Assembly (NCBI GenBank): GCA_029838195.1
Contig: JALGVJ010000067.1
Coordinates: 1 to 10,943, forward strand
DNA from: Promethearchaeota archaeon
Lineage (GTDB): Archaea > Asgardarchaeota > Lokiarchaeia > Sigyniarchaeales > SOKP01
Direction: 5' to 3'
DNA length: 10,943 bases
The notes below the pieces were generated by a model. That model did not search any database and was not told where the DNA came from. It saw nothing but the letters and a program-made list of their open reading frames with translations. This document shows, in pieces, positions 2,359 to 5,334 of this stretch (the stretch's first letter is position 1; the number at the start of each line of letters is the position of its first letter). Position numbers and translations under genes: made by a program.

Positions 2359-3366
2359 ATGCTAGATGCCGTCTCTCATTATAAAAATATGGATTTGAAA
2401 TTTCAAATAAAAGCTTTAGAATTTTTAATGACTATTAGATACCACAAGCAACCCAAATTACAAGAAATAAAAAAAAAATTATTAACTCAGCTATTAAAAT
2501 ATAATTCTTCAGTAGATCAAAAATTAAGATCAAAAATTAATGAGAATTTAGATCAGCAAGAAAGAGAGAGATGGGATCGTCAGTTAAATCATCCTTTAAT
2601 TAATCAAAAAAAAATAAAAAATGCTCGTATTGTTGTTTTTGGCCTTGGAGGTATCGGGTCAAATGTATTATTAAGTTTATCATATTCATGGATTCATGAC
2701 TTCAAAATTATTGATTTCGATACTATAGATCTCTCCAATTTAAACAGGCAAACTTTATATTTTGAAGAAGATCTCAGAAAATTAAAATCAGAAAAAGCGG
2801 TTGAGAGATTATTAATGATTAACCCAAAAATTAATGTTAAAGCTTATAATTTAAAAATTGATTATCCTGAAGATTTAAATGTATTTGAATTAGAAGAAGA
2901 AATTTATTCTAATACCATATCACTAGTAAATGATATTATAAAATGGGGTGATTATATTGTTATCGCCATGGATCTTAATGGAGCCCCCTATTTGATTAAT
3001 GATCTATGCATTAAAAATCAAAAATCTTTTTATTGGGCAGGTGTAAATCATTCATTTGGAGAAATTTATAGTTATAATCCTAATAAAGTTTCTGCTTGCT
3101 TACGTTGCATATTTGGACCATATACTTTCTTAGAAAAAACCCCATTTTTAAGATACAAAAATAAAAAAAATTATCCATTTAACGGCGCAAATATTGGCAG
3201 CACGGTCATAATAACTGGCAGTTTAGTATCAGAATTCATACTCCAAGATATATGTGCGTTCCCAACTCATACATATGGTCAATATATTATTTTTAATGCT
3301 TTAAACCATGAAATTATAAATATTCCGATTAAAAACCATGATAAATGTTATTGTTCTAAGTTTTAA
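2359..3366 (+). CDS. ThiF/HesA/MoeB-family (E1-like) adenylyltransferase with N-terminal extension
   Basis: ERWDRQL (RYxRQ-like), VVFGLGGIGS nucleotide-binding loop, DFDTIDLSNLNRQ signature, CLRC and C-terminal CYC putative Zn ligands. Confidence 0.92.
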   Translation: MLDAVSHYKNMDLKFQIKALEFLMTIRYHKQPKLQEIKKKLLTQLLKYNSSVDQKLRSKINENLDQQERERWDRQLNHPLINQKKIKNARIVVFGLGGIGSNVLLSLSYSWIHDFKIIDFDTIDLSNLNRQTLYFEEDLRKLKSEKAVERLLMINPKINVKAYNLKIDYPEDLNVFELEEEIYSNTISLVNDIIKWGDYIVIAMDLNGAPYLINDLCIKNQKSFYWAGVNHSFGEIYSYNPNKVSACLRCIFGPYTFLEKTPFLRYKNKKNYPFNGANIGSTVIITGSLVSEFILQDICAFPTHTYGQYIIFNALNHEIINIPIKNHDKCYCSKF

Positions 3367-3422
3367 TAATAATTTAAATAGTTCTTTTTAAATTAAAATA
3401 AAAGAAATTTATCAATAAATTC

Positions 3423-5012
3423 ATGAAAGATCTTAATATTTTATACATCCAACCTCAAGAAGCTCATGATACTAATGATTTTTTATCATGTCTTCTTAGA
3501 ATTTCAAATTATTTAAATTCAAAAAAATGCGAATTAAAAGGTAAAATACAAGAGCAATATTTAGATCTCAGATTTGAGCCCCTCCCTAAATTCATACCTA
3601 AAAATATAACAGATTATCGTAAAAAATTAGTGAGGCTCTTAGAAGAAATCCAAAATCAATTTGATTTTAACTTGGTTGCCATTTCTTGTTATAGTCAATT
3701 TAAATATCTAAATTCTGTTGAAATCGCATGCATTATTAAAAAATATATCAACCCACTTTGTTTCATTGTAGTAGGAGGGCCACATCCCACTATTCTTCCT
3801 AAAGATTTTCATTCAAGAAATTTGCCAGCTTATATAAAGAAGGAATATGGAAGGAATTGTTCACCATTTGATTTTCTTATTAAAAACGAGGGAGAAATTC
3901 CCTTTTTCAAACTTATAAAAGGAATTTTGAATAATTCAATAGAATATAGAGAAACTATTAAAGATTCTTGTAAGATTCTTAAATCAGAAATAATTGAAAA
4001 TCTCGATAATACTCCTATAATTGATTATTCTTTATTTCGAAAATATAAAGAGAATCTCAAAGAATTTGGCCAGATAAATATTGATTTTTCACGAGGGTGT
4101 CCATTTACGTGTAAAATTTGTACGAATAGTACGGATTTAATGCCTTGTTATAAAAAAGTCAGGTTTAAATCAATAGACAGATGTATTGAAGAATTAAAAG
4201 CAATACGAGAAACCGACTGGCTCCAATTTAATATATTATATATTTCAGATATGATTTTTTTACCAAGAAAAAGCTATAGAATGGAATTCTATCGAAAATT
4301 TAAAGAATTCAAAAATGATGAGAAAGGATTTCCTTACCAAATCTTGGTAAATGAGAGAATAGAATATTGTTCGGAATTAGATTTAAGAAATTATAAAGAA
4401 TTAAATATCATCCCACAAATTGGTTTTGAATCGGGTTCAAAAACAATGTTAAAACGAATGGGAAAAATTAAGAGCATAAACGAAACTGATGAATTAAAAC
4501 AAAATGAAGGTTATTTAAAAAAAGTAGAAAAAATTATCCAAATTGCCAATGATATTAAATTAACCTTCTTGCTTAATTATATTTTATCTCCACCCGGTTC
4601 AGATTTTCAAACTTTTAAAGAAAACATGGATTTTTTTCTAGAAAAAAGATTTAATGGATTATCTTTAATAAAAAAATATGATGTTAATTTATATTTTTCA
4701 AAATATTCAGGACTTTATGGTTCAAAAATTTATGATGAAATCGAGTCTATTTATGGTGGAAAAATCTATTTTAAAAATTGGTGGAAAATTTTTCATGAGG
4801 ATCAGAGAGCTCTTAGCGCTTTAATAGAACCTAGTAAAGTTCTCACGCTTATTCAATCTTTAAAATTGGATGAGACATTTTTAAAAGAATTATTTAAAAA
4901 ACAATTTGCTAGAAAAAATAATTTTTATAATCCAGCAAAATTGTTAAAATTAAATCATGAATATAAAAAAATCATTAAAATTTTAAAAGAAATTAATGAA
5001 ATAGAAAAATAA
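3423..5012 (+). CDS. cobalamin (B12)-binding radical SAM protein (class B methyltransferase-like architecture)
   Basis: N-terminal B12 Rossmann motifs LVAISCYS, IVVGGPHPT and DFLIKNEGE. SRGCPFTCKIC (CxxxCxxC), SIDRCIEEL and IGFESGSKTMLKRMGK radical-SAM barrel motifs. Confidence 0.93.
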   Translation: MKDLNILYIQPQEAHDTNDFLSCLLRISNYLNSKKCELKGKIQEQYLDLRFEPLPKFIPKNITDYRKKLVRLLEEIQNQFDFNLVAISCYSQFKYLNSVEIACIIKKYINPLCFIVVGGPHPTILPKDFHSRNLPAYIKKEYGRNCSPFDFLIKNEGEIPFFKLIKGILNNSIEYRETIKDSCKILKSEIIENLDNTPIIDYSLFRKYKENLKEFGQINIDFSRGCPFTCKICTNSTDLMPCYKKVRFKSIDRCIEELKAIRETDWLQFNILYISDMIFLPRKSYRMEFYRKFKEFKNDEKGFPYQILVNERIEYCSELDLRNYKELNIIPQIGFESGSKTMLKRMGKIKSINETDELKQNEGYLKKVEKIIQIANDIKLTFLLNYILSPPGSDFQTFKENMDFFLEKRFNGLSLIKKYDVNLYFSKYSGLYGSKIYDEIESIYGGKIYFKNWWKIFHEDQRALSALIEPSKVLTLIQSLKLDETFLKELFKKQFARKNNFYNPAKLLKLNHEYKKIIKILKEINEIEK

Positions 5013-5156
5013 CTATTTTTAGTTAATTGGTTTTCTAATTTCATATTTAGAATTTGAATTGTTAACGGTTATAACAATATTAAATCACCAATTAAATATT
5101 AATTACATTAAATTACTTTTAATAAAATTTTTTATAGGTATTTAAAAACATTTTTT

Positions 5157-5168
5157 CAAATATAAATA
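5157..5168 (+). promoter_or_regulatory. probable BRE-TATA promoter of the peptide ORF
   Basis: CAAA-TATAAATA lies ~50 nt upstream of ATG 5218. SD-like GAAGGT at 5204-5209. Confidence 0.4.
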
Positions 5169-5217
5169 CTGCAATTAAATTTTAAAATAATAAGAAACAT
5201 ATTGAAGGTTGAGAATT

Positions 5218-5334
5218 ATGAAATTAAGCAAGAAACTTATGGCAACTCTGTTAGTACTTTTGACTATTTCCTATGGGTTAAGTTTAGCCACTGCTGGGGT
5301 TTCCCAACCAGGATGTGCTGAAACAAATCCTTAA
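5218..5334 (+). CDS. 38-aa peptide: Sec-type signal/leader plus 12-aa core GVSQPGCAETNP; candidate RiPP/pheromone precursor
   Basis: Hand translation MKLSKKLMATLLVLLTISYGLSLATAGVSQPGCAETNP*. Basic n-region, hydrophobic h-region, A-T-A cleavage motif. Hand-counted GC 45/117 (38%) versus 6/60 in flank 5101-5160. SD-like and TATA elements upstream, T-tract downstream. Confidence 0.8.
   Translation: MKLSKKLMATLLVLLTISYGLSLATAGVSQPGCAETNP

Follow-up and report, generated by a model that had tools for sequence, protein, structure and literature searches.

A 38-residue mini-protein gene beside accessory ThiF-like and radical SAM enzyme genes in a Promethearchaeota genome

The staphylococcal AgrD precursor of the autoinducing peptide (AIP) is about 40 aa long, with an N-terminus that targets the membrane, a Cys located shortly before the mature end and species-specific ring residues. 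The AIP thiolactone is mentioned in PMC12250964. In Streptococcus, the GRC cluster encodes the precursor GrcA, the ThiF-like enzyme GrcB, the radical S-adenosylmethionine (SAM) enzymes GrcC and GrcD, the RiPP recognition element (RRE) protein GrcE and the transporter GrcF (PMC12596934, PMC12250964), where RiPP stands for ribosomally synthesised and post-translationally modified peptide. According to reviews, an N-terminal RRE is present in every characterised ThiF-like enzyme of RiPP pathways (PMC12250964, PMC12596934). Bacterial small single-pass membrane proteins such as AcrZ, KdpF and CydX form a further group of short products (review PMC12648545). Here, a 10,943 bp contig (G000:C36) of a Promethearchaeota (Lokiarchaeia, Asgard group) metagenome-assembled genome of 4.5 Mb and approximately 27% G+C was analysed. 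The whole contig is referred to as the window, and the genes in question encode a ThiF-type adenylyltransferase, a cobalamin-domain (B12) radical SAM enzyme and a mini-protein of 38 aa, the last from what is called here the mini-gene.

The first-pass annotation of the window had assigned the DNA to an Asgard lineage and described three co-oriented genes separated by 56 nt (3367-3422) and 205 nt (5013-5217). The lineage was borne out, and the gene layout, coordinates, gap sizes and peptide sequence were all correct. Its further statement that no pathway with this architecture is characterised in this lineage holds for the lineage only, since the streptococcal GRC cluster likewise unites in one locus the genes for a ThiF-like enzyme, for radical SAM enzymes and for a short Cys-containing peptide. 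By analogy with that cluster, a thiolactone formed via carboxylate adenylation would be chemically possible at the window locus. The two differ in several respects, however. GrcB has an N-terminal RRE and the GRC cluster has a stand-alone RRE protein and a transporter, none of which is present at the window locus. Of the Grc radical SAM enzymes, one is an epimerase and the other a dehydrogenase, and a cobalamin enzyme is not described there. Finally, the window peptide has a membrane-type N-terminus, belongs to a multi-copy family found mostly elsewhere and lacks a conserved linkage to the enzymes.

The reading preferred here, to which we would give an even chance, is that the locus combines the remnant of an accessory cassette, variable in content and centred on a giant Lrp-like protein named F2, with an independent mini-protein gene. 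A dedicated ThiF and radical SAM peptide factory, as originally proposed, is possible and is not the best reading. Three objects are newly defined: a 38-residue, putatively exported mini-protein under extreme purifying selection with a species-specific tail, an accessory clade of ThiF-like enzymes without an RRE, and a giant Lrp-repeat protein amid a swappable enzyme and transporter cassette.

The mini-gene and its product

The mini-protein starts with a basic N-terminus, continues with a hydrophobic helix of 22 residues in which YGLS.A.AG is conserved and ends in the tail GVSQPGC-AETNP. Full-length relatives of 36-41 aa with 50-73% identity were present in 30 of the 151 genomes sampled from the order. 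The copy number was 1-4 per genome carrying the family; no further copy was found in the window genome, where the window copy is the sole one. The family consensus was M..KK..aLaiLLtvaYGLSmAaAGVSiPGC.E..P, with K6, G27 and P31 invariant and L11, L15, G20, V28, S29, G32 and C33 conserved at 90% or more.

Genome G006 carried three paralogues encoding identical peptides, with 14, 17 and 20 synonymous codon differences per pair and no non-synonymous difference. The three paralogues of G037 also encoded identical peptides, with 19-21 synonymous and 0 non-synonymous differences. That only synonymous changes occurred is decisive for translation, with strong purifying selection acting on the product. 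The mini-ORF, which the first-pass annotation had picked out as a hidden gene, was thus shown by comparison of paralogues to be a genuine gene that is translated and strongly selected. The Shine-Dalgarno-like sequence upstream of the window copy fits the 16S rRNA 3' end located in the same window, and GGAAGTGA was found at the matching position in the G006 paralogues. A hairpin with a long T run lies 3' of the stop codon in the window, and T runs at equal distance were present in 3/3 G006 paralogues.

A search with the family profile among 1.84 billion representative proteins produced 26 clusters only, each of them either a stand-alone protein of about 38 aa or an ORF call that was over-extended and ended in the motif. 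Such stand-alone occurrence means that the mini-protein does not serve larger proteins as their signal peptide. No model in Pfam or NCBIfam matched it, no description of the family was found in the literature, and standard annotation misses it.

Conservation of the hydrophobic helix equalled that of the tail, and its small residues were spaced as in helix-packing motifs (small-xxx-small at G20, A24 and G27). A helix conserved as strongly as the tail is unlike a disposable signal peptide. The earlier RiPP proposal gains no support here, as the N-terminus, hydrophobic and conserved, has the look of a membrane anchor or a Sec signal and not that of a cytoplasmic leader. In family f1 the N-terminus showed KK, a hydrophobic stretch and A-x-A followed by G, and in family f4 an F or W was found at -3. 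The mini-protein would insert with the N-terminus inside and the C-terminus outside through the KK and the 22-residue helix, and the 12-residue tail GVSxPGC-x-E-x-x-P would be exposed outside the cell or released after the A-x-A site. It may be pictured as acting alone, as a small membrane or exported protein with a species-specific tail. Like AcrZ, KdpF and CydX, it measures about 38 aa, is encoded by a gene of its own under strong purifying selection and has a single conserved transmembrane helix with small-xxx-small positions. It differs from them in being multi-copy, in its conserved exoplasmic GVSxPGC and species-specific tail and in having no known partner complex.

The Cys and the short tail were nearly invariant in position across the family. 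The residues from the Cys onward were nearly always identical among the paralogues of one genome (CGEAAP, CSEGQP, CADGVP etc.) and varied from genome to genome, and the copy beside ThiF or F2 sometimes departed slightly from the common tail of its genome. A lipobox reading of P-G-C was rejected, as the motif is x-P-G-C and not [LVI][ASTVI][GAS]-C and the genome showed no lipobox usage: among 109 signal-peptide-like N-termini, only 10 had a Cys close to where the hydrophobic region ends, and these had no consensus. Two Cys-less variants were also observed. One, ending in ...GWFGGPGSEGSP, lies divergent from F2 (L143, about 3510-3630; G008:C52, - strand), and the other, ending in ...GISIPMPGFGP, lies just downstream of a B12 radical SAM gene of another clade and a YchF gene (L103, 6922-7044; G030:C6).

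The adenylyltransferase and the radical SAM enzyme

The ThiF clade of the window was Asgard-only. Approximately 50 proteins reached E ≤1e-68, and the next matches came only at 1e-22, where ordinary 247-aa MoeB-like proteins begin. The clade was patchy (16 of 151 genomes), and five other ThiF-family paralogues were found in the window genome. The invariant positions of the clade were GxGGxG, DxD (D119/D121), SNLNRQ, R130, K143, D205 and the zinc site CxxC...CxC. Judged by its adenylation residues the window ThiF is catalytically complete, and it would adenylate the carboxylate of some substrate. Neither a crossover-loop Cys nor a rhodanese domain was found in its sequence, which argues against sulfur relay.

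Housekeeping sulfur-carrier activation of the MoeB, ThiF or UbaA type, with unrelated neighbours, is highly improbable. It agrees with the zinc-binding CxxC pairs and with the best sequence and fold matches, which were to E. coli MoeB and ThiF. Against it stand the lack of both sulfur-relay features, the patchy distribution, the five paralogues and the absence of a ThiS, MoaD or SAMP gene nearby. In addition, the enzyme scored far under every NCBIfam equivalog cut-off, with 104.6 bits for ThiF (cut-off 275), 94.8 for MoeB (449), 60.8 for UbaA (450) and 37.4 for TcdA (304). The suggestion in the first-pass annotation of a non-housekeeping ThiF was supported by the separate clade and the paralogues.

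The AlphaFold2 model of ThiF had a predicted local distance difference test (pLDDT) value of 92.6, and its best fold matches were E. coli ThiF and MoeB with a template modelling (TM) score of 0.9 normalised to the target. MccB of microcin C (PDB 3H5A, 3H9J and 6OM4) and PaaA of pantocin A (5FF5) superposed with a Foldseek E of about 1e-17 over the adenylation domain only, in approximately 275 columns and with a TM score of about 0.6 normalised to the target. The window enzyme resembles both in length (335 aa compared with about 350-380 aa) and in having an N-terminal extension. However, the extension of the window ThiF (residues 1-76) was modelled as five helices with no strand (pLDDT 85-97 there), in contrast to the winged-helix RRE or peptide clamp of MccB and PaaA. 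An RRE, defined as a winged helix with beta-sheet acting as peptide clamp (PMC12250964, PMC12596934) and used to test membership of the RiPP group of MccB, PaaA, GrcB, EnfB and IndF, was not found in the model, and an MccB-type clamp at the N-terminus was rejected on account of the purely helical extension. Prediction of a complex of the ThiF dimer with the peptide gave a score of 0.05 (mark 0.32), which counts neither for nor against binding. In a g11 genome, G057:C2 (L146, 5687-6813), the ThiF orthologue beside the radical SAM and F2 genes was split by stops into 201 and 148 aa and looks like a decaying copy of the accessory enzyme.

The radical SAM enzyme matched the Radical_SAM domain with 31.2 bits (cut-off 29.5) and had the cluster motif CPFTCKIC (CxxxCxxC) at residues 226-233, while its B12-binding match was weak (24.9 bits, under the cut-off of 32.1). 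All of its top NCBIfam matches were B12 radical SAM families at about 40 bits or less against cut-offs of 251-750, e.g. ApyD (40/750), TIGR03975 (26.7/281.85) and TIGR04013 (40.4/251). It thus shows the cluster motif and, through a sub-cut-off match, the N-terminal cobalamin-binding domain of the class-B radical SAM methyltransferases of RiPP pathways (PoyB/PoyC, ApyD, TIGR03975), and scores below the curated cut-offs of these families. Phylogenetically it fell in an Asgard-specific clade of 8 orthologues with support of 100/99, apart from at least 5 other B12 radical SAM clades in these genomes. Members of the window clade were found in tandem pairs with another B12 radical SAM clade in G006 and G024 (L059 and L060), and an apparently fused double radical SAM ORF of 1,080 aa was observed in G137:C27 (L152, 5535 onward).

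F2, the accessory cassette and the spread of the mini-gene

F2 is a cytoplasmic protein that was present in 22 of the 24 genomes of the family. No significant match was found for F2 in Pfam (even at E ≤1), among PDB sequences or with language-model features. Its AlphaFold2 model (pLDDT 77, predicted TM score 0.77) consisted of repeated helix-turn-helix (HTH) and beta-alpha-beta-beta-alpha-beta (RAM) modules. The model matched the siroheme decarboxylase NirDL (PDB 4CZC) with a Foldseek E of 2e-3 and probability of 1.0, and archaeal tandem Lrp/AsnC proteins and HTH_AsnC-type Atlas clusters with TM scores of 0.6-0.73 normalised to the target. F2 would thus share the repeated folds of these proteins, and differs from them in its length of approximately 1,200 residues with at least 4 repeats, the lack of a detectable Pfam domain and its restriction to Lokiarchaeia. 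The regions upstream of F2 were long (470-680 nt), and no glycine-rich micro-ORFs were found in 14 of them. F2 may be the most interesting object at this locus.

Both enzyme clades have their real anchor in F2, which they nearly always flank in relatives: the ThiF gene adjoined F2 in G003, G005, G009, G019, G088, G130 and G134, and the radical SAM gene did so in G024, G057, G065, G079, G089 and G118. A major facilitator superfamily (MFS) transporter was found in the cassette in genera g2, g6 and g11, and a GNAT gene sometimes joined it, adjacent to ThiF in G019 and fused to it in G009. Both enzyme clades were shown to be accessory, Asgard-specific and tied to F2. A gene for an ADP-forming acyl-CoA synthetase alpha-like (ACS-like) protein usually followed F2, with this order in G001, G003, G011, G021 and G015. 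As the ACS-like gene lies directly downstream of F2 in relatives, the window ACS-like gene marks a site of F2 loss. In the sister species G001, contig C189 ended inside the radical SAM gene and contig C64 began with F2, from which the likely order is YchF on one side, then ThiF, radical SAM, F2, a broken mini-gene and the ACS-like gene. The window had no F2 at the syntenic place. The window genome carried its F2 on contig C89 (G000:C89:57430-61075; L109, 7431-11075, - strand), 28% identical to that of G001. It was therefore shown that the syntenic F2 was lost between the radical SAM gene and the mini-gene, with a divergent copy surviving on C89. The adjacency of radical SAM gene and mini-gene in the window is probably a by-product of this loss.

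The composition of the cassette also bears on a small-molecule signal, which we regard as unlikely. ThiF would activate an N-acyl amino acid or similar carboxylate (oxazolone-type cyclodehydration) made with the help of GNAT and acyl-CoA enzymes and methylated by the radical SAM enzyme, the MFS transporter would export the product, the amino-acid-binding RAM domains of F2 would sense it, and the mini-gene would be a bystander. The GNAT gene adjacent or fused to ThiF, the ACS-like gene after F2, a crotonase-like gene nearby in g5 and g9 (named from N-terminal sequence alone), the MFS transporter and the modelled Lrp/AsnC-like ligand-binding repeats of F2 are all in line with it, and one ThiF-like enzyme acts on N-acyl amino acids (PMC12596934). 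However, a nitroreductase or oxidase partner is lacking, the window has no GNAT, the composition differs greatly among genera, the chemistry is not inferable from sequence and the recurrent mini-gene is left unexplained.

The majority of mini-gene copies adjoined unrelated genes, in contexts conserved across genera. In the first context (six loci), genes for a thiolase, an OB-fold protein, in some cases an M28 peptidase, a Sec11-type signal peptidase S26 and Alba preceded the mini-gene; the adjacent signal peptidase and aminopeptidase could be processing enzymes of the mini-protein or mere synteny. The other contexts were a hypothetical pair with a restriction-modification methylase, CdhE-like genes and a Ras-like GTPase. 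A further recurrent position was beside F2 and/or the ThiF orthologue. Here the order was ThiF, mini-gene, F2 in G003; ThiF then mini-gene at a contig end in G137/BC3; F2 then mini-gene in G006 and LW60_4; mini-gene then F2 in G018; and the mini-gene was convergent with ThiF in G115/Yap150. Members of two other B12 radical SAM clades also had mini-gene copies as neighbours; in G030 the copy lay immediately downstream, and in G024:C2 and its relatives it lay at a distance of one gene. The G030 enzyme was considered as an orthologue of the window radical SAM enzyme and rejected, as it falls in another clade. In G001, F2 is followed by an inverted, broken mini-gene and the ACS-like gene. This sole copy in G001 (L079, 3708-3821; G001:C64, - strand), inverted relative to its flanks, had an in-frame TAA at codon 14 and GIY in place of GVS, whereas ThiF and F2 were intact and the radical SAM gene was open to the contig end.

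In the 151 genomes the mini-gene was present in 30, the ThiF clade in 16 and the radical SAM clade in 23. The co-occurrence of the two enzymes expected in the first-pass annotation was rarely found, as both were together in only 6 of the 33 genomes holding either. They were adjacent in G000, G001 and G057 only and within 5 kb in G118. Five genomes (G054, which is 100% complete, and G063, G010, G022 and G141) carried the mini-gene without either enzyme. Conversely, genus g11 had ThiF and/or the radical SAM enzyme in 11 genomes, five of them with the ThiF clade, and the mini-gene in 0 of 53; no hydrophobic mini-ORF of this type was found near ThiF, the radical SAM gene or F2 in g11, apart from a doubtful 23-aa ORF in L156. 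Ten genomes carried both the ThiF clade and the mini-gene, and in 4 of them the two were no more than 2 kb apart. The expectation of similar peptide ORFs beside the enzymes was borne out next to ThiF in three cases (G003, G137/BC3 and G115/Yap150) and not for the radical SAM clade, which had no mini-gene copy beside it outside genus g1.

Overall, these results argue against a dedicated three-gene RiPP system, since most mini-gene copies lie beside unrelated genes, mini-gene and enzymes occur apart, the sister species keeps the enzymes with the mini-gene broken, and the ThiF has no RRE. The independence of the mini-gene is supported by at least four other conserved contexts, the enzyme-less genomes carrying it, genus g11, the broken G001 copy, the stand-alone clusters and the conserved helix. 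The cassette would draw on a pool of RRE-less ThiF, cobalamin radical SAM enzyme, MFS transporter and GNAT, plus one mini-gene copy in five genera, and the mini-gene would have one ancestral position in this neighbourhood. The radical SAM enzyme would most likely methylate the substrate of ThiF in the service of the F2 module, and the three genes would sit side by side because they descend from a common chromosomal hot spot.

Several observations weigh against the remnant-cassette reading. The tails, nearly constant within a genome and different between genomes, fit a defined mature product. One of the two enzyme clades was present in 19 of 30 genomes with the mini-gene and in 14 of 121 without it, an association that is real and, as the count is uncorrected, confounded by relatedness. 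In genus g3, ThiF and the mini-gene were jointly present or absent between the same flanking genes (G003 compared with G015). In three genera ThiF, and in five F2, was the immediate neighbour of the mini-gene, and the varied order and orientation hint at selection for linkage. Copies adjoining two other B12 radical SAM clades (G030 and G024:C2) also count here.

These observations bear on a RiPP or AIP-like maturation, which is possible and somewhat doubtful. ThiF would adenylate the carboxylate of Pro38, Cys33 would attack to form a six-residue thiolactone, and the radical SAM enzyme would C-methylate a core residue. A signal peptidase would cut between A-x-A and G and free the species-specific 12-mer, with MFS as exporter and F2 as sensor in relatives. 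SpsB removes the AgrD N-terminus by signal-peptidase cleavage, and the mini-protein is AgrD-like in size, membrane-targeting N-terminus, Cys placement, species-specific residues of the would-be ring and possible signal-peptidase release. It differs in that the window system has no AgrB-like peptidase, no two-component sensor and, as the peptide ends at the would-be ring, no C-terminal recognition tail. Peptide thiolactones formed via ThiF-like adenylation, which the GRC cluster pairs with radical SAM enzymes (PMC12250964, PMC12596934), lend this maturation support, as do the nearly fixed position of the Cys and short tail, the pattern of tails, the placement of ThiF beside the mini-gene, the g3 genomes, the partial phyletic association and a ThiF with all adenylation residues and without the E1 thioester Cys. 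On the other hand, ThiF has no RRE, the mini-gene is common in ThiF-less genomes (g4, g6, g10 and part of g9) and its tail shows no difference according to whether ThiF is there, g11 has both enzymes without any mini-gene, and the gene is broken in the sister species. Moreover, a 22-residue hydrophobic leader would reach the membrane before cytoplasmic enzymes act, and T runs separate the radical SAM gene from the mini-gene in the window, which suggests separate transcripts.

The fullest form of this maturation is an archaeal peptide pheromone, in which ThiF would close a thiolactone between Cys33 and the C-terminus, the radical SAM enzyme would optionally methylate it, a signal peptidase would free the 12-mer and F2, assisted by MFS, would sense it; this we consider improbable. 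If it were true, the closest prokaryotic relatives of eukaryotes would possess a circuit of quorum sensing by peptide, for which no precedent was found in the papers searched. Nor did the literature search bring up a paper on peptide signals, RiPPs or small membrane proteins of Asgard archaea. Should the parts be functionally linked, they would amount to a new system for signalling or modification, acting through peptides or small molecules, in the lineage that stands nearest to eukaryotes. Should they be unlinked, small-protein biology would still have a clean target in the mini-protein.

Other features of the window

The features of the window are listed in Table 1. The tRNA match had no ARAGORN call, so an intron is probable. 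No 23S rRNA gene was found after the 16S rRNA gene in the window, and the rRNA genes therefore appear unlinked. The inverted repeat with its T-rich run is the likely end of the mini-gene transcript. The YchF-related GTPase served as synteny marker; it was directly upstream of the other-clade B12 radical SAM gene in G030 and three genes from the orthologue of the window radical SAM gene in genus g4.

Table 1. Annotated features of the 10,943 bp window.
Feature	Position	Strand	Remarks
16S rRNA 3' end	1-218		ends ...GGATCACCTCCT
tRNA match, 102 nt	488-589		Rfam, 54 bits
YchF-related GTPase	876-2084	-	NF007171 at E 4.5e-150
ThiF-type adenylyltransferase, 335 aa	2359-3366	+	PF00899, E 7.8e-42
Class-B (cobalamin-domain) radical SAM enzyme, 529 aa	3423-5012	+	Radical_SAM plus weak B12-binding match
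Shine-Dalgarno-like GAAGGTTGA	5204-5212	+	5 nt before mini-gene ATG
Mini-gene, 38 aa	5218-5334	+	product MKLSKKLMATLLVLLTISYGLSLATAGVSQPGCAETNP
Inverted repeat AATTGGTTTTA/TAAAACCAATT, then T-rich run	5349-5405	+	
ADP-forming acyl-CoA synthetase alpha-like (ACS-like), 477 aa	5652-7085	+	Pfam and NCBIfam matches
Leucine-rich repeat (LRR) protein, 282 aa	7151-7999	-	
Two function-unassigned proteins and thioredoxin	beyond ACS-like gene	-	

The syntenic homologue of the window LRR protein in G001 was 711 aa long, so that the window copy may be truncated or a shorter variant.

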